Below, piece by piece: positions 14,922-63,914 of a stretch of 64,000 bases of DNA. The notes under the pieces are model-generated. The model searched no databases. It had not been told where the DNA came from and worked only from the letters and a program-made list of their open reading frames with translations. A program made the position numbers and the translations under genes. Source of the stretch: a virus; IMG/VR virus record IMGVR_UViG_3300044800_000286; one strand, 5' to 3'. The stretch's first letter is position 1. Each line of letters begins with the position of its first letter.

Positions 14922-14950
14922 ATAATACTCGAAAGTCCGGTTTCTGTCAA
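14922..14950 (-). promoter_or_regulatory. Sigma70-type promoter of the ncRNA/tRNA-Pro array
   Basis: TTGACA-17 bp-TATTAT. Confidence 0.8.
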
Positions 14951-14961
14951 CAGCTATCTTC

Positions 14962-14985
14962 GGGAATTATGCGCCTAACTTCCCC
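14962..14985. mobile_element. Orphan IS1595-type terminal repeat
   Basis: GGGAATTATGCGCCTAAC preceded by TSD-like CTATCTTC, 11 bp from the -35 box. Confidence 0.5.
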
Positions 14986-15168
14986 GCATCGTACGCGACC
15001 CAAAATTCCGACGGCGTTTTGGCGGGGTATACGCGCCCGAACTTGCCCGCCGCAAAACCTTCGAAACGTCGCCCGCAAACGCACATCAATTCGGCACGAT
15101 GCACATTGCCCAGAAAACCTTGCGAGTAATCCGGGGGCTGTGCATGCCGATAAAGCACAGTATTTTTC

Positions 15169-15453
15169 TCACGTTTCTGCCCCCTTGACGGCCCGATCTT
15201 CATGCCACTTCTTGATGCCGAGGACGGCGTTGTTCAGATGCGCCTCGCGTTCCTCGGGCTCGAATATCCCGTCGCCGACAGTCTCGGCCGAATAGACCGT
15301 TTCGCCGTTTACCCACGGGCACGAGGCGCGAAAATACCCGTGGCGCAGCCGCAAGTAGCCGACCAGCTCGCCGCCGATGAAAGCGTCGTACTGCTCGGGG
15401 CAGGCTCCGCAAGTCATCACCAGCCGAACCCCGTTTATTTCAAAGTCGCCCAT
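15169..15453 (-). CDS. Hypothetical phage protein
   Basis: TCGACPEQYD...VGYLRLRHG motif. Confidence 0.65.
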   Translation of the reverse strand: MGDFEINGVRLVMTCGACPEQYDAFIGGELVGYLRLRHGYFRASCPWVNGETVYSAETVGDGIFEPEEREAHLNNAVLGIKKWHEDRAVKGAET

Positions 15454-15635
15454 TTTATTTCTCTTTCAAGAGAGTCGGGCGGCGTGGGTTTGAACGTGAC
15501 GAGCGGCGGTGGGTCGTAGTTGTAATCTTCCGCGGTGCTCCACGCCAAGGTCGCAAGCATACCCAGTATCGCCTCGGCCGGTATATCGCCGGTATATTCC
15601 TTGCGGTACTTCTCGTATTCGTCCCATTGCCTCAT
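15435..15635 (-). CDS. Hypothetical protein
   Basis: Coupled ORF in a minus-strand operon. Confidence 0.5.
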   Translation of the reverse strand: MRQWDEYEKYRKEYTGDIPAEAILGMLATLAWSTAEDYNYDPPPLVTFKPTPPDSLEREIKWATLK

Positions 15636-15833
15636 TTCTTTGCCTTCTTCCGCCTGCGGGGCCGCGTCAGGGCGAGCGTCCGCTGGAATTCCTCGTCGTC
15701 GATGACATCGGCTCTTCCATCACCATTCCGCATGCGCCAATAGTATTCCCCGGTTCCTTCGGTCTCGTCCTGGGCGACCCAGCGGACGTACTCGCGGCGC
15801 TTGAACTTCGCCAGCGGATTCGCCAATGCTTTT

Positions 15834-16124
15834 CTAGGCGTGAGTTTCATACATTCCATGCGCCCAGCGCAAGGTCTCTTGCGCGTCCCCATAAGAAATT
15901 TCGTGCTCTTCCGCAAGATGATTGATCCAGCGGTGGATAGCCCTGTGCTTCAGCATCAACATGCATTCGCCGCAGCAGACGCAATCCTTGTACGGCTTGG
16001 GTTGCGGTTTCGGCTGCCGGGCTTTTTTGTAATGGTGCTCGGCAATCCAATAAATTCCCAAGACGGCTCCCCCCGGCACCACGGCCACGAGAAAAGCCCT
16101 TCTGGCTAGCTTATTCCAGTCCAT
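15834..16124 (-). CDS. Small membrane-anchored protein with CxxC...HxxxxH
   Basis: N-terminal TM helix, CVCCGEC...HLAEEH. Confidence 0.55.
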   Translation of the reverse strand: MDWNKLARRAFLVAVVPGGAVLGIYWIAEHHYKKARQPKPQPKPYKDCVCCGECMLMLKHRAIHRWINHLAEEHEISYGDAQETLRWAHGMYETHA

Positions 16125-16259
16125 TGTCTGCCGTTCGTTCCTTCCTCAGGACGAAATACAGAGTCGTCCCGTCGGTCGTGGCAGAGTCCAGTATACCATG
16201 CAATTCGGAAGCCGTGATGAGGCGGTACTGCTCCTCGGTGATGAGGATGATGCTAGCCA

Positions 16260-16481
16260 TCAATCGTATCCCCGTTCTTCCCGACTCACCACGCGGCACG
16301 TCTTGTTTTCTACATCCACTTCGATGACGATGTCTTCGGACCATACGCCTAGCTTTTCGAGGATGGCACCTACTTCGGTAAAATCCCGCTTGTTTTCCCT
16401 GCACCATTCCTCCAAGGTCCCGCGGTTGTCGTTGTCCGGGTCTTTCCAGTATAGGCGGAGCTTCTTGAGTTTCCTGGCCAT
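16260..16481 (-). CDS. Hypothetical protein
   Basis: Coupled to the AAA ATPase stop. Confidence 0.6.
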   Translation of the reverse strand: MARKLKKLRLYWKDPDNDNRGTLEEWCRENKRDFTEVGAILEKLGVWSEDIVIEVDVENKTCRVVSREERGYD

Positions 16482-20173: not shown

Positions 20174-20513
20174 TGCAACTCCTTTGCCAACCGGCGCACA
20201 TAGGCGCACGGGTCGCAATCGCAGTTTTCGCCGTCCCGCTGGGCTAGCAGCCGCGGTATTTCTGCTTCCGGCGTCAATGCTTCGTATTCGTTTGTGATCA
20301 TGATTTCCTTTTCCCGAACCAGCGGAACAGCCCGCTTCCGGACAACGGCGTCGGCACGGAATTGGTAATCGCTTTGGCCGTGGAGAAGAGGGAGGCGATC
20401 TCGACGCCCTCTCGCTTCCTGTCGATCTCCGTGCCTTAGCGCGTGTACCCCGCGATCTCGTGCGACAGGGACTTCCAATCAAAACGTGCATGTGGGGCGA
20501 TGGACACTGTAGT

Positions 20514-20699
20514 TTACACCTTTCCTGTGAGAGCGCGTATCTTTTTTTTGTCTTCCGACAACTGCGCTTGGAGGGAGAGCACCAGCCGCGCTTCCTCGTT
20601 CGTCATCGGGTACTTGGACTGGACCGTGCCGATCTGTTCCTCGTACTGAGCGACACGGGTTTCGAGCATTTCGATCTGTTGGCCTAGGGTGGGGTCCAC
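20514..20699 (-). CDS. Small coiled-coil protein
   Basis: GAGGAGG RBS after a TATACT promoter. Confidence 0.6.
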   Translation of the reverse strand: MDPTLGQQIEMLETRVAQYEEQIGTVQSKYPMTNEEARLVLSLQAQLSEDKKKIRALTGKV

Positions 20700-20772
20700 G
20701 GCAATTCCTCCTGCCCTAAGTATACAGGGGGCCGGGAGATTTGACTAGGTACCGGGGAACTAGTACGAAAGG

Positions 20773-20792
20773 TGGTGCCGGGAGGGGGAGTT
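20773..20792 (-). pseudogene. 3' remnant of a tRNA (T-loop to CCA, Leu-like)
   Basis: AACTCCCCCTCCCGGCACCA directly after the HNH stop. Confidence 0.55.
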
Positions 20793-21295
20793 CAGCCTAT
20801 GGCGGCTGCCAAAGTTTCAGTACGGACGCTTGGGCCTTTTCTTCCCCATGTTTCGGTTTGCGAGTGGCAATTGGGGCACAAAAATCTCAAATTGTTTTTT
20901 CGGTTGTCCCACCATTGTCCGCTTTCATGGTCTATTTCCAGAATTAGCGGTTCTCCTCGCCAAATGGGGAGACAATGGCATTTACAACATTCGTACGGAA
21001 CACCCGATTCAATCAACGCCCGACGTAAAACTGCGGCGTGTTCTTTCCGTTGTTCTGGCGAGCGAAGAACTAAAATCTCCTCCCATTGACGACGATTTTT
21101 GGGACGTACTCCCCTGTTCCTCCGTCGGCCCAAAAAGTGGGACGTGTCAAGCCCATAAATTCTTATCCATCGAGAAATGTTTCCTTGTGTCCCCCCGCTT
21201 TGCCGCAGCCCCAATTTGCGGATTATTTCCGCAAGGGTTAAACTATCTGCTACAAGCGGAGACAAAACCTCTTTTGTGTACTTTACATGTCTCAT
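20792..21295 (-). CDS. HNH endonuclease
   Basis: LEIDHESGQWWDNRKNNLRFLCPNCH. Confidence 0.88.
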   Translation of the reverse strand: MRHVKYTKEVLSPLVADSLTLAEIIRKLGLRQSGGTQGNISRWIRIYGLDTSHFLGRRRNRGVRPKNRRQWEEILVLRSPEQRKEHAAVLRRALIESGVPYECCKCHCLPIWRGEPLILEIDHESGQWWDNRKNNLRFLCPNCHSQTETWGRKGPSVRTETLAAAIG

Positions 21296-21354
21296 GGTAG
21301 ACTCCCCTACACATGAGATTGATAGTCTGCCAATTACAACACTACCGATGAATT

Positions 21355-21431
21355 TGGTGGCCGACCGGGGATTCGAACCCCGAAAATCTTCCTTCTGAGG
21401 GAAGCGGATATGCCGGTTCTCCTAGTCGGCC
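21355..21431 (-). tRNA. tRNA-Leu (CAG), short variable loop
   Basis: CTCAGAA loop, CCA. Confidence 0.85.
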
Positions 21432-21436
21432 AAACT

Positions 21437-21527
21437 TGGTGCGGAAGGTGAGAGTCGAACTCACAAGGGGGCTTGCGCCCCAGTGGATTTTAAGTCCACG
21501 GCCTCCGGCCAATCGGGCTGCTCCCGC
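21437..21527 (-). tRNA. tRNA-Leu (TAA)
   Basis: CTTAAAA loop, long variable arm, CCA. Confidence 0.88.
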
Positions 21528-21532
21528 AAAGT

Positions 21533-21622
21533 TGGTGGCGGATGAGAGACTCGAACTCTCACGGGCTGCTAAGTCCCGGCAGATTTTGAGTCTGCTGCGT
21601 CTGCCAGTTCCGCCAATCCGCC
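21533..21622 (-). tRNA. tRNA-Leu (CAA)
   Basis: CTCAAAA loop, long variable arm, CCA. Confidence 0.9.
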
Positions 21623-21628
21623 AAATTT

Positions 21629-21719
21629 TGGTGCGGGCGAGTGGATTCGAACCACCACGGAGTTTAACCTCCGCCAGCCCCTCAAGCTGGTGCGTCTCGC
21701 CAAGTTTCGCCACGCCCGC
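21629..21719 (-). tRNA. tRNA-Leu (GAG)
   Basis: TTGAGGG loop, long variable arm, CCA. Confidence 0.9.
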
Positions 21720-21731
21720 GAATCTATATCT

Positions 21732-21811
21732 TGGTGCGCAGAGCGGGACTCGAACCCGCAAGCCGTACGTTCTAAGCGTACGAGGTATGCCAAGATTCCC
21801 TTCACCTGCGC
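21732..21811 (-). tRNA. tRNA-Leu (TAG), short variable loop
   Basis: CTTAGAA loop, CCA. Confidence 0.82.
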
Positions 21812-21820
21812 ACTTCAAAC

Positions 21821-21908
21821 TGGTGGAGCGAGCGGGCATCGAACCTGCCATGTCCGCAAGGGACGCCAGGTCTACAGCCCGGTGCACCGCCATTGGTGCG
21901 TTCGCTCC
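21821..21908 (-). tRNA. tRNA-Tyr (GTA)
   Basis: CTGTAGA loop, long variable arm, CCA. Confidence 0.85.
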
Positions 21909-22079
21909 AAAACTCTTCACCCCAAAAACAATAGAGCCGCCGAATCGCTTCAGCGGCTCTGTCGGTACCGGGGCTGTAATTTCGTTTACCCGATGGACAT
22001 ACCGCTGCCGAAGCTACGAAGGTAGCTATACAGTCGCAACGATAATAGGGCCATCGGGGTCATAAAAGTCTCCGTCTAC

Positions 22080-22109
22080 ATAATACTGCGGTAGCTGGAA
22101 AACTGTCAA
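22080..22109 (-). promoter_or_regulatory. Sigma70-type promoter of the Tyr/Leu tRNA array
   Basis: TTGACA-18 bp-TATTAT. Confidence 0.75.
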
Positions 22110-22218
22110 GAACTATTTTGGGGAACTACCCCTTTAAGTACACAAAAAATCTTGTAAATAGCTTGTTTTCAACACAATACAGCTAGCTAAAATCCCTCCT
22201 CGGCTGTATACTATGGGC

Positions 22219-22959
22219 ATGGAGAAAACGCCCATGAAGACAGCAAAAGTTCGCAACCCGTTCGCAGTTTCAGCCAAGGGGCTCGGGGAATTCAATACTC
22301 CTTGTTTCTGCGAGCGTTGTTTCATCCTCAAGAATCAGATGCGCGGCAAAGACAAGGAAGCGCCTTTCACATTTCCGCCACCGGGGATTTTGTCTCGCCT
22401 TGATTCCATGCAAAAGAAACTCATCAAGAACTCTGCGCTTCCGTCTTTCTTGAGCGCCTACGCTGGACAAGAATGTATCGAACTCCACCGCATGACTTTC
22501 ACTGACTCTGAGACTGGCATCGAATTGACTGGCGTCCCCGATTTGGCGTTCCGTGATGCGGACGGCAACATCACCATTTTGGATTTGAAGAGCAGCAAAC
22601 CTCCCGCCGAAGCGACGGAGTGGTCCGAGAGGATGCTCGCCATTTACGCCGCCCAATTGCACGCCTACAAGACGCTGCTTGAAGCCCGCGGCGAGGGGAA
22701 AGTGACCTCGCTCAGCATAGTGTATTTGTGGCCCGATACGATGATCAGCGCCGAGGGTGGCGTCAGCGTCGAGTTCAAGGCGACCGAACTCCCCGTGGCT
22801 CTCGACGGCACGCTCATCTCCCGCCTGTTTCAGAAGGCGAAGGCGTTGCTCGACTCCGAACTGCCCGCTCCGACCGCTGGTTGCGCCGACTGTGCCCGTG
22901 TGGCGAACTTTCTCGTGCTCTTGAACGCTGCGCCGAAGGCTGAGGGGGTGGGGGCATAA
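22219..22959 (+). CDS. PD-(D/E)xK nuclease, Cas4/RecB-like (leaderless start)
   Basis: CERCF...GVPD...ILDLKS...QLHAY...CADC. Confidence 0.8.
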   Translation: MEKTPMKTAKVRNPFAVSAKGLGEFNTPCFCERCFILKNQMRGKDKEAPFTFPPPGILSRLDSMQKKLIKNSALPSFLSAYAGQECIELHRMTFTDSETGIELTGVPDLAFRDADGNITILDLKSSKPPAEATEWSERMLAIYAAQLHAYKTLLEARGEGKVTSLSIVYLWPDTMISAEGGVSVEFKATELPVALDGTLISRLFQKAKALLDSELPAPTAGCADCARVANFLVLLNAAPKAEGVGA

Positions 22960-24533
22960 TGTCAGCACGACTCACAATCGAAGAAGCCGAGCGTCGTTGT
23001 CCTGATATGGTCAAAGGTCAGGCATGGAAAGGCAATCACGCCGAATATAAATTTCTTTGCGAAGTGCACGGAGAATATGAACAAGAATTTAATCGCCACG
23101 CCCGTGGCGCGGGTTGCCAGAAATGCGGACGTGAAAGTATGGCCGAGGCGCAAAGCCTCACAATTCAGGAAATGGAGCACCGCTGTTCCGACATGATTAA
23201 AGGTCAGATATGCAAAGGCACTCACGCCAAGTACTGGTTTATCTGTGGGGATCATGGGCAGTACAAGCAAGAATTTAAGTCGCATGTGGCGGGAAGGGGC
23301 TGTAGAATCTGCGGACGCGAAAAATGTATCGCAAATAGACGACTAACACTCGAAAAAAAGTGGCACAAGGACGACAGATTTAAGCCGGGAAAACGAATAC
23401 CGGGAACAGACTTGGCATACATTGGTCCGTCCAGCCGCAAGACCAGCGGCGGGAATTTCATGGCGGGGGTTCGGTGTCTGCCACATGGAAATAAGTTCGA
23501 GGTGTCTTTTTCCCTCTTGAAAACCGGAAGTCCCACTACTTGCCGAAATAATGAAGCTTGCAATCTTTATGGATTCGAGCCGGGAAAACAGATACCGGAT
23601 ACCGACTTGATATATGTTGGCCCATCCGACCGCAAAAACAGCAGTGGGAAGCGGATGATCGTGGTTCGTTGCGTCCCGCACGGGAACACATTTGAGGTTA
23701 CTTTGCGTGGTGTGAAATCTGGATATGGGACGAGTTGCAGAAGCAATCCTGCTTGCGTCCTGCATGGATTTGAGCCGGGCAAGGTCATACCGGGGACGAG
23801 CCTTACATTTATGCGGAACATGGGAATCCAAAAAAGAAATAGGCATCAGTGGGGGCAGCGCAGCATCATTGTGCGGTGCGAGCACGGAAACGAATTTGAG
23901 ATTCCGCTAGTTCAAGTAAAGAGCGGAACCACCACTAGCTGCATGAAAAATCCTGCCTGTGTCGTCCGTGGATTTGAGCTAGGTAAGTTGATTCCAGATA
24001 CAAACTTCATTTACCAAGGGTATGAGACAGGACGCGATGGAAAACCGGGGCGCGCTTTGGTTGCCTGCCTTTGTGGTAAGGAACTTCGAATCCCCCTCGG
24101 CAACCTTCGAAATGGGGGATCGACAAGCTGTGGCTGCATTAAAACTTCAAAACTGGTAAGGGCTGTCAAAGAATTTTTAACCGCATCGAACATTTCTTTT
24201 GTTTGTGAAAAAAGGTTCGATGAATGCCGCGGACAGGAAGGTCACCACGGGCGCGTTCGCTTGCCTTTCGACTTTTACCTTACCCAGCTAGAAACTTTAA
24301 TCGAATGCCAAGGCATGCAGCATTACCGTCCCATACGGTGGAGCAAAAACACGTCGATAAAGCAGGCCGAGCAAAATTTTCAGGATTTGCTTCACCGTGA
24401 CCGCATCAAGAAGGCTTGGGCGGGACGCAACGGCTACACCCTGATCGTCGTCCCCTATACGATCAAGAACATCGCATCGTTCCTCGAAGACATGCTTCCA
24501 AAGCGCCAGAAGCGTGAAAGGGCTGGGGTGTAA
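22959..24533 (+). CDS. Repeat-rich Zn-binding protein with C-terminal DUF559/Vsr-like endonuclease
   Basis: 2x ~57-aa C..HG...GC..C repeats; 4x ~65-aa F.PGK.IP.T.L...TSC repeats; LPFDFYL...IECQGMQHY...RDRIKK. Confidence 0.75.
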   Translation: MSARLTIEEAERRCPDMVKGQAWKGNHAEYKFLCEVHGEYEQEFNRHARGAGCQKCGRESMAEAQSLTIQEMEHRCSDMIKGQICKGTHAKYWFICGDHGQYKQEFKSHVAGRGCRICGREKCIANRRLTLEKKWHKDDRFKPGKRIPGTDLAYIGPSSRKTSGGNFMAGVRCLPHGNKFEVSFSLLKTGSPTTCRNNEACNLYGFEPGKQIPDTDLIYVGPSDRKNSSGKRMIVVRCVPHGNTFEVTLRGVKSGYGTSCRSNPACVLHGFEPGKVIPGTSLTFMRNMGIQKRNRHQWGQRSIIVRCEHGNEFEIPLVQVKSGTTTSCMKNPACVVRGFELGKLIPDTNFIYQGYETGRDGKPGRALVACLCGKELRIPLGNLRNGGSTSCGCIKTSKLVRAVKEFLTASNISFVCEKRFDECRGQEGHHGRVRLPFDFYLTQLETLIECQGMQHYRPIRWSKNTSIKQAEQNFQDLLHRDRIKKAWAGRNGYTLIVVPYTIKNIASFLEDMLPKRQKRERAGV

Positions 24534-25456
24534 TGAGCCGCAGCACAATAAGCACCTTCGAGCTATTCGAGCGGTTCCCCGACGAGAAGTCCGCCCGGGC
24601 CTACATTGAACGCCGCCTGTGGAAGTGTGGCATCGTCTGCCCGAAGTGCGGCACGAAGGACAGCACGCCCCGCAAGGGCAGGAGGGGGTTCCACCTCTGC
24701 AATCCCTGCCGATTGGAATTCACGGTCAGGACGGGAACCATCTTCGGTCGCTCCCACGTGCCTCTGCATAAGTGGGTCTATGCGATGTACCTGCTCGTCA
24801 CAGCCCGCGAGGGCATTTCGTCTCTGCAACTGAGCAAAGAGATCGGCGTCAAGCAGCATACGGCATGGTTCATGCTCCAGAGGCTCAGGGAAGCGTGCGG
24901 GGCTAAGGTTGAGATGCTGCACGGCACCGTGGAGGCGGATGAGACGGTCATCGGAGGCTTGGAGGATAACAAGCACATGAGCGTCAGGCTCCGCAGGGGA
25001 GTCCCGCCAAAGACGGTCGTCATCGGGATGCGGGAACGGGGCGGCAGGACGGTTGCCAAGATTCTCCAGAGTCACGGCGGGACCGCAATTCGGAACGCCG
25101 TCACAGCCAGCGTGGGGTTGGGAACCCGCCTCATGGCGGACGAAAATCCCAGCTACACGAAACTGGGCAAGCAAGGCTACGAAGTCCAAACGGTCAAACA
25201 CGTCAAGGACGAGTATGTGCGGGGCGACGTGCACACGAACGGAATTGAATCTGTATGGGCCGTGATGAAGCGAGGATTGCACGGGGTCTACCATCACGCC
25301 AGCAAGAAGCATCTACAGCGATATATGGATGAGTTTGCGTTCAGGCTCAACGAAGGAAATGTTGGCAGGCATACTTTCGAGCGGCTGGACAGCTTGGTGG
25401 ACGCCGTGGCGGGGAAGCGGATTACTTACGAGGAGTTGACGGAAAATGCGGACTAG
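24533..25456 (+). CDS. IS1595-family (ISXO2-like) DDE transposase
   Basis: Zn ribbon CPKC...CNPC, HTH GISSLQLSKEIGV, VEADET, MADE, HTNGIESVW, HLQRYMDEF. Confidence 0.95.
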   Translation: MSRSTISTFELFERFPDEKSARAYIERRLWKCGIVCPKCGTKDSTPRKGRRGFHLCNPCRLEFTVRTGTIFGRSHVPLHKWVYAMYLLVTAREGISSLQLSKEIGVKQHTAWFMLQRLREACGAKVEMLHGTVEADETVIGGLEDNKHMSVRLRRGVPPKTVVIGMRERGGRTVAKILQSHGGTAIRNAVTASVGLGTRLMADENPSYTKLGKQGYEVQTVKHVKDEYVRGDVHTNGIESVWAVMKRGLHGVYHHASKKHLQRYMDEFAFRLNEGNVGRHTFERLDSLVDAVAGKRITYEELTENAD

Positions 25457-25483
25457 CCGCCTCCTTATTTGAGGTGAGAAACT

Positions 25484-25726
25484 ATGGAAGTATATTTGAA
25501 TGTTTCAATTGGATTGCCACCCGGTTGTGAAAAGCAATTTTGTCCCACTGAGCAATGCCAACAGAACTGCATCTTATCTGAAACAGATGTTGACAAATAT
25601 TTGAAGCTTGCGCGGGTGCATTTTCCAGAATTCGTCTGGGATAAGCTGCCCGAGGCAAAAGATTCACCGTTCAAAAAGTGGGTTGTTTTCGGTCAATCTA
25701 AACTGGCTGTGGACTTAAAGGGATAA
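25484..25726 (+). CDS. Small cargo protein; stop codon inside the right TIR
   Basis: GAGG RBS; ends AVDLKG* within the TIR. Confidence 0.45.
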   Translation: MEVYLNVSIGLPPGCEKQFCPTEQCQQNCILSETDVDKYLKLARVHFPEFVWDKLPEAKDSPFKKWVVFGQSKLAVDLKG

Positions 25727-25739
25727 TTCCCCTATTTTG

Positions 25740-26260
25740 GGGGATTATATACTTGAGTCCGCAAGCCTCGCAGCGTCCTGCATCGGCTTGAAGTGCCTTA
25801 AGGGTTCCCGCACTCCCCCATTTTAGGGGAGTCGAAGAGTATCATACCGCACCTTATGCTCTTCCACAACCGGACGAACCTGAGTCTCCCGAGGGTTGGT
25901 GGAGGACTTGCCTGTCTTAATCTCCAGAAAGACAATTTCTTTAAGCTGGCCTTCGTCCAAGCCGTCAAAAACGATGTAATCTCAACAACCTTTTCAACTT
26001 CAACAATCTTAGGAACCTCAACAACCTTCTCAACTTCAATAATCTTGGGTATCTCAACCAGATGAGGAACCTCGACAACGCGGGGAGGTGCCGTTTTCAG
26101 GCTTTGGTTCTTACGCCAAAGAACAACAACGGCGACTGTCAACGCCAAAATCACAATCCACTGAAGCATTGAGCTTAATACTGTTCGGGACTGGGAAATG
26201 GCTGTTGTGTATCGGAACTAGGGGTGTTTTGATGGTTGCGTACTCAAGTGTATAATTCCC
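25740..26260. mobile_element. Non-autonomous IS1595-type element abutting the autonomous copy
   Basis: Ends GGGGATTATATACTTGAGTCCGC and (reverse complement) GGGAATTATACACTTGAGTACGC; no transposase; right TSD does not match. Confidence 0.6.
25823..26169 (-). pseudogene. Internally deleted membrane-anchored Holliday-junction-resolvase-like endonuclease (Endonuc_Holl type)
   Basis: TM + VEVPK repeats joined out of frame to DYIVFDGLDEGQLKEIVFLEIKTGKS...VRYDTLRLP (25823-25981). Confidence 0.7.
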
Positions 26261-26311
26261 TAAGTTTACGGGCAAAACACAACTACGGTCCTCCTGATTA
26301 GGGGGGCTACT

Positions 26312-26530
26312 ATGTTATTTATTGCGAAGTCCGGTGAGATCATACCCCTCACAGTGGATTGGAACGGTATTAAGGACTGCCCGACTTTTACGGTTCGAGA
26401 GGATCAGACGTTTGGTGAAGCAGCACATCTTTCAGAGTGTAATTGCGAGTTTCACCGCATGTGTCGCGGCGAAGATATATCGGGGGACCTTGATAGTTCA
26501 AAGAACTCCCTGATAACGAAAAACCTTTAA
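26312..26530 (+). CDS. Hypothetical protein
   Basis: GGGGG RBS, low GC. Confidence 0.45.
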   Translation: MLFIAKSGEIIPLTVDWNGIKDCPTFTVREDQTFGEAAHLSECNCEFHRMCRGEDISGDLDSSKNSLITKNL

Positions 26531-26715
26531 TATCGTCCAACACAACCCATGCGGGACAGGGTTTAGGTTCTCGTGTTTTGCATTTTACACGTAAGGAATA
26601 AGCCATATCTGGGAATTGTACACCCATTCAACTCTAATTCTGCTCAGCCCAAAAAGCCGGGGCGATGCCCAACTCGTGGGCGGACTGGACGAGGACGCGC
26701 AAGGGGTGCTGCATA

Positions 26716-27033
26716 ATGGAAGACCCAAAAGATCAAACCGAATTATTAAAACAAATCATCCGGCAGTTGGTCGCTCGCTGCGAGCAGCTTGACCTTGAGA
26801 ACGAGGCTTTCCACGCTTGGTTAAAGTCCGTAAAGTTTGGTTCCGTAAGCATTGGGGATAAACTTGATGAATCGTTTCGGCAATATTTTGACAGAGAAGT
26901 AAAAACCTCGGATCGTTTTCGGGTTTTAGTGCATCACAAATGGTCTGCCGTAACCGACGTTTTAGAGCACCGGTCGGATGAGACATCCTTGAAAAAGCTG
27001 CTTCAAGGGCTTCCGCCGAAAAAAGGGCAGTAG
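26716..27033 (+). CDS. Hypothetical protein
   Basis: Low-GC ORF MEDPKDQ... Confidence 0.5.
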   Translation: MEDPKDQTELLKQIIRQLVARCEQLDLENEAFHAWLKSVKFGSVSIGDKLDESFRQYFDREVKTSDRFRVLVHHKWSAVTDVLEHRSDETSLKKLLQGLPPKKGQ

Positions 27034-27328
27034 TTTTCTTATTTTTCTTATCCATCTTAATAGCCATGGGATTCCTCCGTAGTAGAAGCCTATAGTTGTA
27101 ATACTGAGAAAGGCCCACTATGACAGCTTATCCAAAACTCAGAATCGCTGTACTAGCAACCGTTCTACTTGCAGTCAGAAAATGAAATCTCAAATTACGG
27201 CAGCGACAGTTGGGGGCTTCTATGGGCACTGAAATCAAGGTCTGGGAAATCTCGGATAATCACGTAAAGGCCGTAGGAGATGCGGCTCTGGAGTCATCTG
27301 CATGACTCCCCTATTTTTTGAGGAAGTC

Positions 27329-27520
27329 CTACTGCTTGGAATGGTCGTACCCGATGTGCCGGGCTTCCGCCCCGCATTTGTGGTACCGGGTGCTGGTGTT
27401 GCCTTCGCGCGTGACAACCTTTCCGTCGCGCACCAGGTCGAAGAACTTCTCGCAGGCATCGCAGTAGAATCCCCACGTGCCGAAATCCCACGGCGTCGGG
27501 CTCGGATCGATGGGCTTCAT
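27329..27520 (-). CDS. Small Cys-containing hypothetical protein
   Basis: AGGAG RBS, coupled. Confidence 0.55.
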   Translation of the reverse strand: MKPIDPSPTPWDFGTWGFYCDACEKFFDLVRDGKVVTREGNTSTRYHKCGAEARHIGYDHSKQ

Positions 27521-27807
27521 GGCTGCTGTTCTCCTTTTTGAGGAATCTCAAACGGCTCGATCTGCTGGGTTTCAAGGTTGAAGCGGTCGAAGGAAATCCC
27601 CATGAGACGGCAGACTCCCACAAGCACCGGGCCGTCCAAGATTCCCCAATTTTCCGGGATAAAATCCGCCTCGCACTTCGGGCACCAGAGATGTTCCTTG
27701 TATTCCGACCAGTCGGGATCGGTGTGGCCGCAGCCGTGGAACGCTATCTCGTATTCTTTCGGGCGTTGGACGTATACCCAAGTGCGTTTTTCCAAAATCT
27801 CGCTCAT
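27517..27807 (-). CDS. Hypothetical Zn-finger protein
   Basis: WSEYKEHLWCPKC motif; ATGA coupling. Confidence 0.6.
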   Translation of the reverse strand: MSEILEKRTWVYVQRPKEYEIAFHGCGHTDPDWSEYKEHLWCPKCEADFIPENWGILDGPVLVGVCRLMGISFDRFNLETQQIEPFEIPQKGEQQP

Positions 27808-28505
27808 TTTTTGCAACCGTTGTTGCAGTCAAATTCCGTGCCGATATACCACTGCTTGATCCAAGACAGGGGGACGTGGCCGTCTTTGTCCATTACTTTG
27901 CGGGGAATCTCGCCCCAGAATTTCTGGAACCGATACGAAGCCGAGGCGCGCACGGCGTCGAGTTCCTTGTTCAGCTTGCATCCACCGTCGTTGCTGAAGG
28001 CATGCTTGTGGCCGGGAATTTTGGGCGCTACGAAAGGCTTCATCGCCACCCTCCAACCGGCGCTCTTGCCTGCCGTGACGGCTTCCTCCATCGGCCCCTG
28101 AGGGTGCCCCTTCGGGCACATCCAGAAAGAGCCCCGCTGGCTGTCCGTGTTGAACATCTGGAGCGCCCGCCCGCATTTCACGCATTTCGGCCAGCAAGCG
28201 GCGTTCTCCAGACCGCAGGAGCACACGAATTTGATGCAGCTATGATCATCGCTGTGGCGGTAGCTCCGCTGCGCAGCGCGGTTGGCGGCGGCTTGGAGCC
28301 GGAGGAACCTCTTCTTGACTTGTGCCTTGGTCATGCGGTCGTTCAGGTGCCAGTCGTGCCACTGCCCGTTAGGGTGGCAGAGGCCGAAGTGCGCCTCGCC
28401 TTTGAACGTCCTCACGTATTCGAGCGCGGCCTTCAGCGTGGAGAAGTCGTAACCGTCGCAGAATACAGTCGGGGTGCTCACATACAGTTGGTATTTGTTG
28501 CTCAT
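27804..28505 (-). CDS. Hypothetical protein
   Basis: AGGAAGG RBS; CSC...CVKC. Confidence 0.65.
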   Translation of the reverse strand: MSNKYQLYVSTPTVFCDGYDFSTLKAALEYVRTFKGEAHFGLCHPNGQWHDWHLNDRMTKAQVKKRFLRLQAAANRAAQRSYRHSDDHSCIKFVCSCGLENAACWPKCVKCGRALQMFNTDSQRGSFWMCPKGHPQGPMEEAVTAGKSAGWRVAMKPFVAPKIPGHKHAFSNDGGCKLNKELDAVRASASYRFQKFWGEIPRKVMDKDGHVPLSWIKQWYIGTEFDCNNGCKK

Positions 28506-28545
28506 GGTTCCTTCCTAGAAAATGCTTTGACATCCTCCCCCGCAT

Positions 28546-28695
28546 TCATGCGGGGGATTCCTCCTTGGCGGAATAGTCTTGGGCCAAAAGTTGCTCTTCT
28601 GTCACGGGCACAGGAGGTTTGGGGTTTCTACTTTTGAGCCAGAGGTAAAAGCCGCCGAACACAAGAACAGCAAGAAGGATATCTATAAGAATCAC
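28546..28695 (-). CDS. Small single-TM cargo protein
   Basis: GGAG RBS; MILIDILLAVLVFGGFYLWLKSRN... Confidence 0.45.
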   Translation of the reverse strand: MILIDILLAVLVFGGFYLWLKSRNPKPPVPVTEEQLLAQDYSAKEESPA

Positions 28696-28924
28696 GGTCT
28701 CCTCACTTTGCCTTTTTCCACAAGTAGCGGATTAAGGCTACCATCAAAACAAGCGGCAGCCCAAAAACAACGAGGTAAAACAAAATCCCCAGCCCAAGCA
28801 TTAGATAAAGCACATTCTTCTCCTCCCGCGGTTAGGACGCACTGAACTCAACCCTCCCGTGTAGTATACCACATTTGGGTAAAAGGCTACTACCCCAAGC
28901 CGTTGATTTGCTGGAGCTTCTGAC

Positions 28925-28951
28925 GCTTGTGGACTCAAGCGTATAATTCCC
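28925..28951. mobile_element. IS1595-type end followed by TSD-like CTATTTTC
   Basis: Reverse complement GGGAATTATACGCTTGAGTCCACAAGC. Confidence 0.7.
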
Positions 28952-29096
28952 CTATTTTCAAGTATTTTCAACACCCTAAAGTCGGCCTTACCCTGCCCTG
29001 AAGTGCAGGGCTTGCGGCCTCCACGGGTCAAAGCCGCAGTACGGGCAAGCCGACTCAAGGTCTTGGTCCCCCCGAGCGAGGACGAGCGGATCAGGG

Positions 29097-29705
29097 TCAG
29101 GCACGGGCTCCCTCCAATTTATTGGGGTGTTTCTTTTTCCATCGAGCCCTGGTTTGAGCAGCGTGCTGATTGAGATGCTTTTGACAGCAAGTTCTACCCC
29201 GTGTTGCTTGGGCCGGACAACGTGTGCACAAACCAACGGATATTCTTTCTTTGTAGGTTTTGGCTTTCTCTGCCTTCCTATGTTTTGTACACACTTGATT
29301 ATATCCTGTGCGTTGACTGCAGTTGCGATAGAACTTATCAACAGGGCGAAACTCATTACAATGACCGCACCAATTCATCCCAGCAGGAGCATCCTTGCGA
29401 TTAGGCCGCTTGCCGTTGGCAGCATTGCAAGAAAAATGCGAGAAAGCAATGTTGTCCAAATCCCAGTAAAGTTTTGAGTCAACATCACGCCATGCCTTTT
29501 TATGTTCAATGCTGAATTCTTTAACCTGCGTGATTTTGAAACCGCACCTAAAACAAGTATCTAAACCAAGACGCTTCGCCATACTGAACATCAGTAGCCG
29601 AGTGAGCTTATACGCCGCACGAGTAACCGGCATACCCAATTGCTGGCTGGCCTTGAGATGCTTAGAGTTCCTGCTCAAATACGGGGCTGCTTGTAGTAAA
29701 TCCAT
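29097..29705 (-). CDS. HNH endonuclease
   Basis: CFRCG...SIEHKKAW...DNIAFSHFSCN. Confidence 0.8.
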   Translation of the reverse strand: MDLLQAAPYLSRNSKHLKASQQLGMPVTRAAYKLTRLLMFSMAKRLGLDTCFRCGFKITQVKEFSIEHKKAWRDVDSKLYWDLDNIAFSHFSCNAANGKRPNRKDAPAGMNWCGHCNEFRPVDKFYRNCSQRTGYNQVCTKHRKAEKAKTYKERISVGLCTRCPAQATRGRTCCQKHLNQHAAQTRARWKKKHPNKLEGARA

Positions 29706-38687: not shown

Positions 38688-38898
38688 TAGAAGTCTGACC
38701 CACCGAGGCTGTATCCCACGGTGTCCGTATCGATCCACTCCGCACCACAGCCGGGACATGGATAAAGAGGGGGATCAAGCCCCAAGAACCCCGTGGACGA
38801 GAGATTCGCCCCGCAGCTGGAGCAATAGGCTCCGCCGTTGCCCTGATCGGTAACGACGTGCAGGCGATAGACTTTTTCTTCATCTTTGGGTTGCATCT

Positions 38899-50725: not shown

Positions 50726-50835
50726 GTCCTTAGTATACGGCAGACCGGGAGATTTTGCTACTTTTAAGCTGTTTAAAACAAACAACTTGCATGCATTTTA
50801 TGGCCGAAAAGTCACCAATTGCACATAGCCTAATA

Positions 50836-55344: not shown

Positions 55345-57026
55345 CGTGTTCTCGCTGGCCACTGCATCCGCTTGTGCTTGAATTCCTTCAGTTCCGGGAA
55401 GTCGTTCTCGGCATCGGCATCGACCAGTTGGTTCGCCGGGTTCCGCGGCGTGCGGTCGAACTTCGGGGAGTTGCCCTGGTCCCAGAGGTTGGGGCTGCGG
55501 CTCTCCTGCTCGCCGGGCTCCATTACCTGGCCGCTGTTGTGGACAAACACGCCAGCGGACAAAGCAAAATTGTGATATTTGTCTACAGAGATGTCGTACA
55601 CGTCCGCCGTACCCCAATGCGTAACCGAAACCACCTTATGGTTCAAGAATGAAGAACACAGTCCGCATAGGGGGCTGACAGTGCTTCTTTTAACATGCCA
55701 GCGGTCCTGGTTAGTTCTCATCCTAACTTCATCCATGTGCTTGCGGTGATTCGGGTCACTCCAGACTCTTTTTGCTTTCTCTTTCATGCGAACCGAGCTT
55801 TGCTGCCTAAAATCAGCATCCTGCCATAGACTTTTCCACAACTTGCTTTGCCGCTCGCCCGACTTTCTCCCGCCTTCTTCGGACTTGTTCCAAGGTACGA
55901 GTTGCGTTTTGCCTCGTTCAGCGGCTCTTTTACGGTCTTCCTGAGAAAGATTGACTTTCGGTACTCGCTTAAAGGGTGTCGGCTTTCCCGCCCACTGAGC
56001 GTTGAGCCTTAGCATATTTTGCCCGCGCGCCATTCGGGCCTTCTCGGTGACAATTGAGCCCCCCAAGCTCTGATGCAGCTTCAAATGGTCTTCCCATTTT
56101 ATCAACATCAGATTGTCGGGAGAATTGTTGAACCTGTTCAAATCCTCGTGGTGGCGAACATAGCCCTTGGGACAGCGGGCTTCCGCAAAACGGTGCGTGA
56201 ATTTCCAAGAGTCGTCTCCCGGCTGATAGGTGGTTTGATACTTATTGCCTCCAGCTTCCAATGGAGCCGAATCTCGATACAACGGCATGAGAGAATCCCC
56301 GGTCTCAAGCAATTCAGCCGCTTTGTACTCACCGTTTCGCATCAAAAACGGATGGTTAGGGGTGCATTTTATAGTTTCGCCGTTATCCAATGTCACCGCC
56401 AGAACGGCTGCGTCCTTTAGGGTTAGACGAGCAGAATGCCCAAGCCCTGGCCTGAGCAGACCCCCATCATTGAGCGAGTAGACCCAAAATTTATTCCTTC
56501 CGACAAGATCGCTCATGGCGACCTCAGTTCCGTCTAGCAGCGGAACCTTAGTATCTCCCGTCAGACAAATGTCGTATCCGTAAGCCGTGACGCGCTTGCT
56601 GCTTTTCTTGATCGCGAGGGCGGTGAGCCCGTCAAGGATGCCGCCGATCTTCAGGAGCGAATACGATGCGTGGGCGGCTGCGGATTTGTAATTCTTTTCC
56701 GCGGCGTACCGCACCGCAGCCTCGAAATCGCGTTGCGCATTTTGCAGCATGCGGAACATGTCCGGGCGGTTCGGCACCTCTTTTGCGGCTTTTTCCAGCC
56801 CGAGGATAAGCTCCCGGAGATTCGGCTCGGTCTCCGCGAATAGCTGTTCGTCCGCGGGGTTGTCTTTCCAGAGAAGGAAGATATCATCGTAGACGCCCCG
56901 CAAGTAGCTGATCTCCCCCGGCCACATGGCGCTGGACTGGAGAAGCTCGCTCCGGAACCGTGGGGGGGTCTGGAGCGGGGCTAGCCCCGAGGCGGACAGC
57001 TTGGCGATGGAAAGGCGTACAGGCAT
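55341..57026 (-). CDS. Hypothetical protein with an HNH-type intein
   Basis: Helical extein; AYGYDI|C...HN|SGQ junctions. Confidence 0.75.
   Translation of the reverse strand: MPVRLSIAKLSASGLAPLQTPPRFRSELLQSSAMWPGEISYLRGVYDDIFLLWKDNPADEQLFAETEPNLRELILGLEKAAKEVPNRPDMFRMLQNAQRDFEAAVRYAAEKNYKSAAAHASYSLLKIGGILDGLTALAIKKSSKRVTAYGYDICLTGDTKVPLLDGTEVAMSDLVGRNKFWVYSLNDGGLLRPGLGHSARLTLKDAAVLAVTLDNGETIKCTPNHPFLMRNGEYKAAELLETGDSLMPLYRDSAPLEAGGNKYQTTYQPGDDSWKFTHRFAEARCPKGYVRHHEDLNRFNNSPDNLMLIKWEDHLKLHQSLGGSIVTEKARMARGQNMLRLNAQWAGKPTPFKRVPKVNLSQEDRKRAAERGKTQLVPWNKSEEGGRKSGERQSKLWKSLWQDADFRQQSSVRMKEKAKRVWSDPNHRKHMDEVRMRTNQDRWHVKRSTVSPLCGLCSSFLNHKVVSVTHWGTADVYDISVDKYHNFALSAGVFVHNSGQVMEPGEQESRSPNLWDQGNSPKFDRTPRNPANQLVDADAENDFPELKEFKHKRMQWPARTR
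55536..56567 (-). mobile_element. Intein (344 aa) with HNH endonuclease
   Basis: CLTGDTKV, TPNHPF, HHEDLNRFNNSPDNL, VYDISV...VFVHN|S. Confidence 0.92.
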
Positions 57027-57422
57027 AAGGCTCCCTATGAAGAGAGCCCAAAAGTTCAATCAAATCTAGGTGATGGCATACTGATTCCGGACTTCCTATA
57101 AATGCTTTCTCAAGTTCAAGATAACGTCCAACGGGGCCTCAAGCTTTGCCTGTGTCCGCTTGGGCGGATTGTATGGGTCCACCGCCTGTGCCGCCACTCT
57201 TCACCGCCTCGATGTCGATTGTCCTGTTCGGGAAGTACCGCACGCAAAATCCCGGCTTTTCCGGGTGGCGGCCGACCTGAAGCTGGCCCTCGCCGCCCAG
57301 GGCGGCGATCTTCTCGTCGGCGAAAAATAGCTCCCTGCCCTCGGCGATCCTGTACCCGAGGTTATCGATCAGGAAAGCCAAAGCCTGGAGGAGAAGCTGC
57401 TGGTTCTGCACCGTGGTCTGGT

Positions 57423-61895: not shown

Positions 61896-61969
61896 TGGAG
61901 CGGACGATGAGAATTGAACTCACGCCTGAACGTTGGCAACGTTCCGTACTACCACTATACTACGCCCGC
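61896..61969 (-). tRNA. tRNA-Gly (GCC)
   Basis: TTGCCAA loop, TCCA end. Confidence 0.9.
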
Positions 61970-61970
61970 T

Positions 61971-62046
61971 TGGTAGCCCCTGTCGGAATCGAACCGACGG
62001 CCCTTCGGGTGTAGACCGAATGCTCTGACCGCTGAGCTAAGAGGCT
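61971..62046 (-). tRNA. tRNA-Val (TAC) with C33
   Basis: TCTACAC loop, CCA. Confidence 0.82.
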
Positions 62047-62060
62047 GCACAAAATATCGA

Positions 62061-62148
62061 TCCCGTCTGCACAGGGTTCCGAATCGAACGGGGAGGGAAT
62101 GACCCCCTTTGCTGGTCGCCTATGCCAGCCTGCCCTGTGCAGACAAGA
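62061..62148 (-). ncRNA. Cloverleaf RNA with a 16-bp closing stem, CAT-centred loop and T loop, no CCA
   Basis: TCTTGTCTGCACAGGG/CCCTGTGCAGACGGGA; GTCATTC loop; CCG-TTCGATT-CGG. Confidence 0.6.
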
Positions 62149-62390
62149 GAACAAAAACAAAAAGGACGACCTTTTCAGATCGTCCTCGGAATCTCTTGGT
62201 TGGTTTCTGCTTATCCTTCCCAACCATCCTCCGAGGACACGGTATCGGCCCCTGCCGCGAAGCCTTCAAAGGCTCCGACCGCGCATACGCCGCCCAAGGT
62301 GTCTGCGGCGGCGACGAATTGGAGACTGCGGTTCATGTCTTCGGTACTCTCTATCTTGATACTGCGTATTCGGAAAACTCCCGGTTATTA

Positions 62391-62541
62391 ACGGAAGCTG
62401 CCCGGTAGGGAGTCAAAACCCTATCCGTGCCCGGATCGCAGCTTGCGCTGCGGCATCGCCCCGAACTATGCGGGGGCATTCTGCCGTATGATCCACTCCT
62501 GCGCAGGGGCGAACCACGTTAAACTACGGGCAGCTTCCCGT
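62391..62541 (-). ncRNA. Extended tRNA-like ncRNA (~150 nt)
   Basis: GGAAGCTGCCCG/CGGGCAGCTTCC stem, TAGTTTAAC after the stem, TAGGG-TTTTGACT-CCCTA T-like arm. Confidence 0.6.
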
Positions 62542-62549
62542 ACTCCCTA

Positions 62550-62579
62550 TCAATACCGCGAAAGCGGGAATCTTGTCAA
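62550..62579 (-). promoter_or_regulatory. Sigma70-type promoter of the third RNA array
   Basis: TTGACA-18 bp-TATTGA. Confidence 0.65.
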
Positions 62580-62920
62580 GAACTATTTTTGGGAATTATC
62601 CCTTTAACTCCACAAACTTCTAGCGTGGGATTTGGGTTACGTCGCAATTTCACTAAAGTGACGCCCTTGTCAGAACAATTTAACGTCGTGTACTTGATCC
62701 ACGAACGCAGGGACTTGTTGTGACGCAAAACTCGACGGATGCAAACGCCAAGGTAGCCTGTGTTCGTATTTATGAATCCGGGGATTATTCCTCGATTACG
62801 ACCGTGGCCGTGAATCAGCGTCAAACGGTCCTTGCCCGTCTCCCATGCCTGCTGCACAATCTTGTTGAGAATTCCATCGGTGATATCTGCCGGGAAGTAT
62901 CCGTGAAGGTCAATTTCCAC
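62576..62920 (-). CDS. Smr-domain protein (cargo; 3' end reads through the TIR)
   Basis: EIDLHG...LIHGHG...GVTLVKL. Confidence 0.8.
   Translation of the reverse strand: MEIDLHGYFPADITDGILNKIVQQAWETGKDRLTLIHGHGRNRGIIPGFINTNTGYLGVCIRRVLRHNKSLRSWIKYTTLNCSDKGVTLVKLRRNPNPTLEVCGVKGIIPKNSS
62591..62613. mobile_element. IS1595-type end
   Basis: GGGAATTATCCCTTTAACTCCAC after CTATTTTT. Confidence 0.8.
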
Positions 62921-63003
62921 TGTTTCCTCCTACTCCTAAAAAACTGCGGGGGGGACCGGAACTCAGTCCCCCGTTCGTGTTACTCGCCTACCGCAAACAG
63001 AGC

Positions 63004-63249
63004 TTAGCAGACTAGTTTTTCTATTTCCGTTTTCACGCGGTAAAATGTGGCTAGGACTTGTTTCGATGTCATTCCCATTGCGCGCAAGCGGTGAAGTTGC
63101 GCCTTGGAATCGTTGACAAATTTGTCTCCCCACTCGCGCCCAAGTGGCACACCTGACGCTAGGGCGAGTTTAACGTGCGCCACGGAATCGTCAACAAATT
63201 TGTCTCCCGCGGCGTCTAATTGTTTTGCAGCGATTTTTGATTTGTTCAT
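63004..63249 (-). CDS. Hypothetical protein
   Basis: AGGA RBS; internal repeat GDKFV(D/N)DS. Confidence 0.55.
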   Translation of the reverse strand: MNKSKIAAKQLDAAGDKFVDDSVAHVKLALASGVPLGREWGDKFVNDSKAQLHRLRAMGMTSKQVLATFYRVKTEIEKLVC

Positions 63250-63392
63250 GTTTTCCTGTTCTCCGGCGATTATCGCCTTTACCAAAACCCCAACTTTGTT
63301 GGGGCTTTTTACGATGGCGCAGAGCAGGATAAAAATTTTTGGTGATGCACCACCGACACAATAATGCTACAAACCACGAACCTCGTCAAGAA

Positions 63393-63914
63393 CTATTTTG
63401 GGGAATTACCCCTTTGACTCCGCAGCTTCTGTTGATAAATGAGGACGGCTTCAAGATTACTAGCTATCGCACGGGCAGCGCCACCCCAGATGAGTCCGAC
63501 AGTGAAATTCGATGTGGGCGCATATGCATCCTGTTTCCCGTCCGCGTTGTGCCTCACGCAGTTCTTCCCTCCCTTGCATTCGACTTCGAGACTTGCGATG
63601 CTGAGTTCTGCAAACTCGATGGACCGCGCCGTGTCGAAATCCAAATCGGCAAGATAGGCGACTGTTTCGTTGTGCACGCCGCGTTTTCCCTGCGGGGCGT
63701 CATAGGTGAGGACCAGCTTGTCACCGACCACGGCAAGCCGATTGTTAATAACTCTGTTCGGGGTGTCAATAAGGTTGGAGTTGATCCTTGCCAACTCCTC
63801 GGTTTGCATCTGGAGATCGAGAGCCGGGAAAGATTGATCGGCTTGTTTCGAGCATCCGCCGACTGCGGTCACAATCGCCGTAAAGACTAAAGCTGCGTAT
63901 AAGTTGGTCTTCAT
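63393..63914 (-). CDS. Lipoprotein (cargo; leaderless; stop codon in the TSD)
   Basis: Signal peptide ending AVGG-C; C-terminus RSQRGNSPK encoded by the TIR. Confidence 0.75.
   Translation of the reverse strand: MKTNLYAALVFTAIVTAVGGCSKQADQSFPALDLQMQTEELARINSNLIDTPNRVINNRLAVVGDKLVLTYDAPQGKRGVHNETVAYLADLDFDTARSIEFAELSIASLEVECKGGKNCVRHNADGKQDAYAPTSNFTVGLIWGGAARAIASNLEAVLIYQQKLRSQRGNSPK

Follow-up and report, generated by a model that had tools for sequence, protein, structure and literature searches.

The DNA considered here is a 64,000-nt stretch (the window) of the 155,256-bp virus record IMGVR_UViG_3300044800_000286 (genome G000), in which four conserved terminal repeats lie next to promoters, and in each of them exactly 11 bp separate the tip from the −35 box. 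The same exact spacing was observed in 26 junctions when other contigs were included, with the promoter outside the element. The repeats are the ends of an IS1595-family (ISNwi1-like) DDE transposon lineage in uncultured peat and freshwater phages, and we put at about 70% the probability that this lineage has, besides its ordinary A/T-rich targets, a site-directed mode of insertion in which the 8-bp cut is set by the −35 hexamer. Three related loci, G001 (identical to L203), L269, and L316, are referred to below by name.

The four junctions in the window consist of the following features; the end scores come from a position weight matrix (PWM) made from 13 end copies.

14922..14950, minus strand: promoter P_A (TTGACA at 14950-14945, 17-nt spacer, TATTAT at 14927-14922), followed by a Pro/Met tRNA array at 14767-11512
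14954..14961: 8-mer CTATCTTC between P_A and end A, at promoter positions of about −46 to −39
14962..14987, plus strand: end A, a solo degenerate IS1595-type end GGGAATTATGCGCCTAACTTCC, PWM score 25
22080..22109, minus strand: promoter P_B (TTGACA, 18-nt spacer, TATTAT), followed by a Tyr/Leu tRNA array at 21908-21355
22113..22120: left target-site duplication of site B, CTATTTTG
62550..62579, minus strand: promoter P_C (TTGACA, 18-nt spacer, TATTGA), followed by a leader and a 14-tRNA array at 62046-59010
62583..62590: 8-mer CTATTTTT between P_C and end C
62591..62616, plus strand: end C GGGAATTATCCCTTTAACTCCAC, the top-scoring match to the end profile
63361..63389, minus strand: promoter P_D (TTGACG, 17-nt spacer, CATTAT), driving orf93 (63285-63004) and an Smr-domain gene
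63393..63400: left duplication CTATTTTG of the 611-bp element
63401..64000, plus strand: 611-bp non-autonomous element, extending to 64011, 11 nt past the window end; end D at 63401-63426

Site A reads TGTCAA (14945-14950), CAG, CTATCTTC, and GGGAATTA, with the end tip at 14962; site B reads TGTCAA (22104-22109), GAA, CTATTTTG, and GGGAACTA, with the tip at 22121; site C reads TGTCAA (62574-62579), GAA, CTATTTTT, and GGGAATTA, with the tip at 62591; and site D reads CGTCAA (63384-63389), GAA, CTATTTTG, and GGGAATTA, with the tip at 63401. On the minus strand, the order at every junction is the end, the 8-mer, 3 nt, TTGAC(A/G), 17-18 nt, and the −10 box. The composite pattern GTCAA-N3-CTATNTTN-GGGAAYTA has four matches in the window and none in 100 shuffles, and the same four sites are its sole matches in the whole 155,256-bp record. 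These junctions had been described in a sequence-only reading of the window, and all four are present with the positions and geometry given there. That reading assigned each −35 box a −10 box at 17-18 bp, which holds for A (TATTAT at 17 bp), B (TATTAT at 18 bp), and D (CATTAT at 17 bp), whereas site C has only TATTGA at 18 bp. As it also proposed, three of the promoters drive tRNA arrays: minus-strand arrays lie downstream of promoters A, B, and C, and two small open reading frames (ORFs) lie downstream of D. The ends fall into two subtypes, in agreement with the minimum of two suggested earlier. The interpretation of the 8-mers as target-site duplications stands in part, as a second copy is demonstrable only at B (25732-25739, perfect) and D (just past the window end, 7/8). 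At sites A and C the ends are solo, and no partner could be identified: no further copy of CTATCTTC or CTATTTTT turned up, nor, for end C, a partner end with a duplication that matches. End A is placed between P_A and the 3' end of a minus-strand operon.

The repeat at site B is the left end of a complete transposon, the components of which are listed below.

22121..25731, plus strand: complete autonomous IS1595-family transposon, 3,611 bp; left inverted repeat (IRL) 22121-22146, right inverted repeat (IRR) 25706-25731
22213..22959, plus strand: passenger gene for a PD-(D/E)XK nuclease, 248 aa (PF12705, 4.6e-9)
22959..24533, plus strand: passenger gene for an HNH/homing-endonuclease-like protein, 524 aa, with atypical codon usage
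24533..25456, plus strand: transposase, 307 aa (Zn_ribbon_IS1595 at residues 16-60, a weak helix-turn-helix hint at about 85-129, DDE_Tnp_IS1595 at 128-273)
25732..25739: right target-site duplication CTATTTTG, common to the next element in a back-to-back arrangement of IRR, 8 bp, and IRL

The inverted repeats of this element are about 24 nt long, IRL and IRR being identical at 21 of the first 24 bases, and the perfect 8-bp duplication CTATTTTG is found on both sides of 22121-25731. It is the back-to-back site at 25712-25765, a fifth repeat site where two copies surround CTATTTTG without a −35 box, that allows the segment to be recognized as bounded by inverted repeats and a perfect 8-bp direct repeat. 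The transposase matches DDE_Tnp_IS1595 (PF12762, the ISXO2-like/IS1595 catalytic domain) over the full profile, 1-153, at 1.9e-38 and 132 bits versus a cutoff of 27, and its N-terminal zinc ribbon (PF12760) scores 26-28 bits versus a cutoff of 25.4. The domains found in it are of the IS1595 type only, and comparison with solved structures gave no match. The segment 22121-25731 is a genuine IS1595-family transposon with passenger genes, and its intact transposase, inverted repeats, and 8-bp duplications bear out the earlier assignment of the repeats to IS1595-type ends.

The HNH gene looks like a secondary invader of the transposon: its codon-usage score is near zero (0.03 per codon versus 0.25-0.27 in the neighbours), and it is missing from related transposon copies (G001, L269, and X19). 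Since tblastn searches with orf80, the PD-(D/E)XK nuclease, and the HNH protein gave no match in any related locus, the transposase is the sole protein that these loci have in common, and the possibility of a conserved accessory protein that selects the target was rejected. In run X19, which contains a strain diverged by about 5-10%, the transposon is found at the same promoter with its interior flipped, so that the transposase adjoins P_B and the nuclease adjoins the far end; this copy lacks the HNH region (no cover at 23209-24112). The orientation in X19 could result from re-insertion or from an inversion between inverted subterminal repeats.

Enrichment of −35 boxes at 11 bp in a larger collection of ends, proposed earlier as a test, was found in two sets. 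The first comprised 167 distinct ends, taken from this genome and from related viral contigs, about 100 in number: [TC]GTCAA stands at a distance of exactly 11 bp from the tip in 11 cases and at every other offset from 0 to 80 in at most one, and two control hexamers (reversed and forward) gave flat profiles. When metagenome contigs were scanned independently with the subtype-1 end, 156 new ends were obtained, with the hexamer at offset 11 in 13 of them and in at most one at any other offset. The pooled set of 361 ends was reduced to 268 once mirror hits within inverted repeats were dropped; at offset 11, 21 of these show TGTCAA without a mismatch (Poisson p ~5e-37), and 25 show it if one mismatch is allowed. 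Counted over all 361 ends, 26 are promoter-adjacent, and only two have the hexamer at any other offset between 8 and 14. Further, among the complete elements flanked by duplications, 14/89 have TTGACA at a distance of 3 bp outside the duplication, in each case on a single side (p ~1e-13).

The hexamers at these junctions have the features of promoters. A perfect TTGACA is found in 21 of 25 junctions, and TAnnnT, which was not a selection criterion, lies 16-18 bp downstream in 18 of 26, versus 13% of the 719 TTGACA hexamers that served as controls from the same DNA. The promoter-adjacent share differs between lineages, being 22/130 (~17%) for subtype 1 versus 3/138 for subtype 2 (p = 3e-5). Relative to the promoter, the element is found in either orientation. 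In the related phage L316, the autonomous transposon adjoins the promoter that serves another tRNA array (Gln/Thr/Ile), which speaks for mobility between promoters, and the related contig L269 contains an orthologous P_B junction (Leu/Tyr array) with different cargo.

The 8-mer between the hexamer and the end belongs to the promoter side of the junction. Sites B, C, and D have the 15-mer AAAATAGTTCTTGAC in common, of which 164 copies are present in 120 viral contigs that are unrelated and mostly low in GC; TAnnnT follows 16-18 bp downstream in 93% of the copies, and no copy is preceded by an end-like sequence. Element-carrying contigs also contain promoters of this form that are unoccupied, such as CAAAATAG-TTC-TTGACA. 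Since AAAATAGTTCTTGAC recurs without ends and such unoccupied promoters exist, the 8-mer is native promoter sequence that was duplicated by the transposon. Positions of about −46 to −39, which it covers, are the proximal UP subsite of Escherichia coli promoters. By sequence, the sites have the features of sigma70-type promoters: TTGACA, a 16-18-bp spacer, TAnnnT, and an A-rich stretch at −46 to −38.

In loci L005-L124, a uniform extended promoter, AAAATAGTTCTTGAC(A)-N17-TATAAT, is present in more than 100 low-GC viral contigs, often in several copies per contig. It looks like an early-promoter consensus that these contigs share and that includes a fixed A-tract upstream.

The most serious alternative, which we nevertheless consider unlikely, is that the −35 box is not recognized at all, and that a preference for isolated A/T-rich 8-mers in GC-rich DNA is combined with selection against hits in genes and core promoters, the proximal UP subsite being the main such island in the non-coding DNA of these phages. 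The target profile of the family, nWWnnWWn with GC-rich surroundings, agrees with this, as do the A/T-rich 8-bp repeats made by ISApl4, another IS1595-family member (PMC12561309). For most of the empty sites that were reconstructed, the A/T island consists of the 8-mer alone, and the half-site scores of promoter-adjacent insertions (0.9-4.4 versus a family median of 5.1) are those of ordinary targets. However, such a preference would not predict a register of exactly 11 in 26 junctions with only 2/361 ends at the other offsets from 8 to 14. A general target model puts the true position first in 29/73 ordinary insertions but in 0/12 promoter-adjacent ones; in 4/12 of the latter a register shifted by 1-2 bp in either direction scores better, yet is not used. 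The promoter-adjacent 8-mers CCTTCTTT, AGATTCTT, and CCATTTAA violate the A/T rule, the genome offers thousands of equal or better target positions, and selection alone would not bar insertions 1-2 bp, or tens of bp, further upstream. As a full explanation, the general A/T preference is insufficient.

A preference for CTATTTT as such was rejected, since the promoter-adjacent duplications are diverse (CTAATATC, CCTTCTTT, AGATTCTT, CCATTTAA, CAATCTTC, and GATTTTTT). In this genome, 17 CTATTTT sites without a −35 box are also empty; as most lie inside genes, this count is confounded by selection. With the diverse 8-mers, the empty CTATTTT sites, and a target model that never ranks the used register first, the pattern exceeds a pure CTATTTT preference, as the sequence-only reading had supposed.

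It is far less probable that descent rather than targeting produced the pattern, that is, that one ancestral junction of end and promoter was duplicated along with the tRNA-operon promoters and inherited across related phages. Within this genome descent holds partly. The P_B and P_C spacers are identical at 12/18 positions, with CTTTCG found also in P_A; the P_B junction has its ortholog in L269; site A deviates in end, 8-mer, and linker alike; and the arrangement of promoter, 8-mer, subtype-1 element, 8-mer, and subtype-2 end recurs at P_B, P_D, and G001. The four sites are therefore not all independent, contrary to the earlier claim, in view of the similar spacers and the orthologous junction. 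Descent does not account for the 14 complete elements that have perfect duplications of their own (11 different sequences) next to unrelated promoter spacers, in contigs of 47-62% GC, nor for the two orientations or the L316 transposon at another tRNA-array promoter.

Slightly less credible still is the possibility that the repeat is a promoter-upstream operator or insulator, for example one bound by a phage regulator, or a cassette boundary like those of the PeSL type discussed below, and not transposon DNA. The solo copies A and C do stand where an upstream activator or terminator would sit, and the end contains a small hairpin, GGGA-N4-TCCC. Against this, the same sequence bounds a transposase-bearing element with duplications, the homology between copies reaches about 100 nt into the subterminal regions, and dozens of copies lie elsewhere, away from promoters. 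The solo ends may have a secondary regulatory role.

The idea that an outward-facing promoter is part of the mobile unit and travels with the end, suggested by the fact that nearly all consensus sigma70 promoters of the 155-kb genome abut an end, is already contradicted by duplications directly at the tips with the promoter outside (perfect at both tips in at least five complete elements), by the opposite ends that have no promoter, by linkers, spacers, and −10 boxes that vary between sites while the ends are 85-95% conserved, and by the same extended promoter without any end in >120 unrelated contigs. The duplications at the tips and the site-to-site differences in linker, spacer, and −10 box show that the element does not bring the promoter along, as the sequence-only reading had assumed for TTGACA.

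Targeting from the −35 box would work as follows. The lineage exists as autonomous copies with passenger genes, as derivatives resembling MITEs (miniature transposable elements with inverted repeats), and as solo ends, and usually inserts into isolated A/T-rich 8-mers. In a second mode, staggered cuts would be made 3 and 11 bp upstream of TTGACA, with the duplicated 8-mer covering about −46 to −39, and the element would come to rest in a harmless spot between transcription units. Because the 8-mer is duplicated, the promoter retains its native upstream sequence. In this phage, the consensus promoters of tRNA operons would have been the landing sites; repeat hits on some of them may have given tandem elements separated by the same 8-mer, and some junctions were probably inherited later or copied along with paralogous promoters. 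We infer that the register reflects target choice and not survival, and that the −35 hexamer serves as the ruler, which the transposase would read either by itself or through promoter-bound RNA polymerase.

The spacing between the −35 and −10 boxes varies from 16 to 18, but the −35 box itself stands at an unvarying distance from the tip, so the reference point should be the −35 element or whatever binds it. The sequence-only reading suggested landing beside strong promoters by contact with sigma70 or RNA polymerase or by DNA readout; the fixed register supports the landing position. We regard direct DNA readout and guidance by RNA polymerase (sigma region 4 or the alpha subunit C-terminal domain, alpha-CTD) as about equally likely, and the perfect TTGACA in 21/25 junctions fits direct readout and a bias to strong promoters equally. 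A protein contact is geometrically plausible, because the centre of the duplication falls near −42.5, a position bound by alpha-CTD and class II activators beside sigma region 4. Recruitment of the transposase by promoter-bound RNA polymerase holoenzyme, with a contact to sigma region 4 at the class II activator/alpha-CTD position, is put forward tentatively, as a possible but rather doubtful form of the mechanism. That the end acts as a pseudo-promoter or pseudo-end is no more than an idea: TTGAC is present at end positions 14-18, but subtype-1 ends often have TTAAC or TTGAG, and the spacing, 13 versus 11, is no mirror image of the target.

Several points weigh against target choice. No empty allele of any occupied promoter was recovered from related phages, where the sequence-only reading had expected them: among contigs of four public runs over 20500-29500 none joins 22120 to 25740, though contigs drop rare variants, and exact searches of viral contigs for the reconstructed empty sites of G000 P_B, L229, and L192 gave no match. 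Purifying selection in gene-dense phage genomes purges most other insertions and so inflates the association with intergenic promoters. The promoters are paralogous within the genome and at least one junction (L269) is inherited, so the four sites represent fewer independent events. None of 38 ends from contigs of bacterial metagenome-assembled genomes (MAGs) is promoter-adjacent, in a small sample that is compatible with a 7% rate but lends it no support. Finally, the proposed reading of TTGACA is drawn from sequence only.

Insertion 15-17 bp upstream of sigma-A −35 boxes has been described for the TnGBS integrative and conjugative elements (ICEs), ISLre2, and ISKra4 (Guerillot 2014, PMC3942029; also Brochet 2009), whose symmetrical repeats permit both orientations and for which the Ty3 analogy and a contact with RNA polymerase were proposed but remain unproven (PMC3942029). 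The elements described here are likewise DDE transposons located at a fixed distance upstream of the −35 box, with the promoter intact and firing away from the element, and with near-symmetrical inverted repeats and both orientations. In contrast to those elements, which have p-MULT 3/4, Mutator-like DDE transposases and reside in Firmicutes chromosomes, they have a zinc ribbon and DDE_Tnp_IS1595 of an unrelated family, a distance of 11 bp and not 15-17 bp, and uncultured phage genomes as their location; and the promoter mode is seen in part of the family only (~17% of subtype-1 ends), with ordinary A/T-rich targets used too. It is the same behaviour as in the TnGBS group, convergent, in an unrelated transposase family, at another distance and in phage genomes. 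Among the papers searched, none was found that reports promoter-relative targeting in the IS1595 family, or such targeting in phage genomes; one survey notes only an over-representation of this family between genes (PMC9208149). The earlier statement that no promoter targeting was described thus holds for IS1595, while the Ty3-like idea has a bacterial precedent in TnGBS, ISLre2, and ISKra4 (PMC3942029).

As to classification, the elements resemble IS1595/ISNwi1 in the zinc ribbon with an IS1595-type DDE domain, the 8-bp A/T-rich duplications, the ends GGnnnTTAT, and the passenger genes. Members of the ISNwi1 subgroup in ISfinder have ends ggnnatTAT and variants with passenger genes; the ends here read GGGAATTAT and passenger genes are present. 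Siguier, Gagnevin, and Chandler reportedly included in their 2009 account of the IS1595 family an ISNwi1 group with passenger genes. The present copies differ in being phage-borne and in having cargo ORFs that read out through the inverted repeats. Yeast Ty3, an LTR retrotransposon that integrates at Pol III start sites via TFIIIB, is similar in concept only, in using a transcription initiation site as the ruler for a safe landing; it is a eukaryotic element with an integrase whose protein guidance was demonstrated, whereas here a DNA transposon is concerned and the guidance is predicted. The PeSLs of T4-type phages are said (Arbiol et al., 2010) to be mobile regulatory cassettes exchanged by homologous recombination between long promoter/stem-loop repeats. 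Like them, the present repeats are conserved, promoter-linked, and border variable gene cassettes in large phage genomes; unlike them, they come with a transposase, inverted repeats, and target duplications.

If targeting from the −35 box is true, promoter-referenced DNA transposition would have arisen independently in a family that has no relation to the single one known for it so far, and this in viruses, whose genomes have little room and seldom contain transposons. With two unrelated enzymes behaving alike, the mechanism (TTGACA read directly, or via sigma/alpha) would be easier to dissect, and the compact 307-aa transposase would be a candidate for promoter-proximal DNA insertion. Such targeting could also explain how large phages gather cargo-carrying elements without gene breakage, and why repeats lie beside the tRNA-operon promoters of these phages. 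If recruitment by RNA polymerase were true as well, a phage-borne transposon would be taking its bearings from a protein landmark that belongs to the transcription machinery of the host; the behaviour proposed for TnGBS would then have originated a second time, independently, and Ty3 would have a counterpart in bacteria and phages.

A scan of the genome with the position matrix gave about 16 ends, versus 0-2 in shuffled sequence. The inventory comprises the autonomous element, the 611-bp element, the solo ends A and C, and non-autonomous pieces in the following region.

25740..28951, plus strand: older non-autonomous element or elements; end Er at 25740-25765 (GGGGATTATATACTTGAGTCC)
28952..28959: 8-mer CTATTTTC beside the 28951 end, a 7/8 match to the left duplication

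The first of these has inverted-end tips at 26260, 27310 (weak), and 28951, and minus-strand cargo ORFs at 27329-28695. The far tip of the 611-bp element corresponds to position 72961 of the genome and is followed by CTATTTG and another outward-pointing end. The element contains one well-scoring minus-strand ORF (63393-63920, 175 aa), which reads out through the inverted repeat and has the TAG of the duplicated 8-mer as its stop codon. Similarly, the Smr-domain ORF at 62576-62920 (minus strand) reads out through end C and stops at the TGA within the P_C TTGACA. A fifth junction of like geometry is located about 780 nt past the window end (G000:C1:72130-72200), with an end at 72192, an 8-mer, TGC, and TGGACA-N17-TAGACT. 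By eye only, another degenerate stretch that resembles an end and points the same way (GGGGTATACGCGCCCGAACTTGCC, window 15020-15045) was noticed about 61 nt inside end A. In G001, the ends at 33611 and 38004 have the same orientation and flanks that are reverse complements of each other (TTATTTAT and ATAAATAA), which suggests an inversion by recombination between element copies.

In other viral contigs, 77 transposase relatives were found at 51-83% identity, with ends GGGAATTATATACTTGACTCCC and 8-bp duplications that vary in sequence. Cultured phages gave no DNA match and only distant transposase matches, at 35% identity or less. Many subtype-2 left ends (for instance, L134 5516, L142 4823, and L185 5911) contain an inward TTGACA at 23-28 from the tip and TAnnnT 17 bp further in, presumably a transposase promoter within the repeat. 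The public runs that contain the window sequence are peat and pond metagenomes, and subtype-1 ends are also present in MAG contigs (loci L353-L385), mostly of Acidobacteriaceae/Terriglobales from peat; together these give a hint of the host group.

Four ORFs in the window contain Hint/intein domains together with LAGLIDADG or HNH homing-endonuclease domains, namely those for DNA polymerase A (PolA), a helicase, and two other large ORFs.

5540-9601, 36411-38759, 47945-50785, and 55341-57059: Hint/intein and homing-endonuclease ORFs (PolA, helicase, two others)

The genome is heavily colonised by selfish elements. Outside the window, at G000:C1:1659-1731 and apart from the arrays, ARAGORN predicts a tRNA with anticodon CTA (labelled Pyl), which is possibly an amber-suppressor tRNA.

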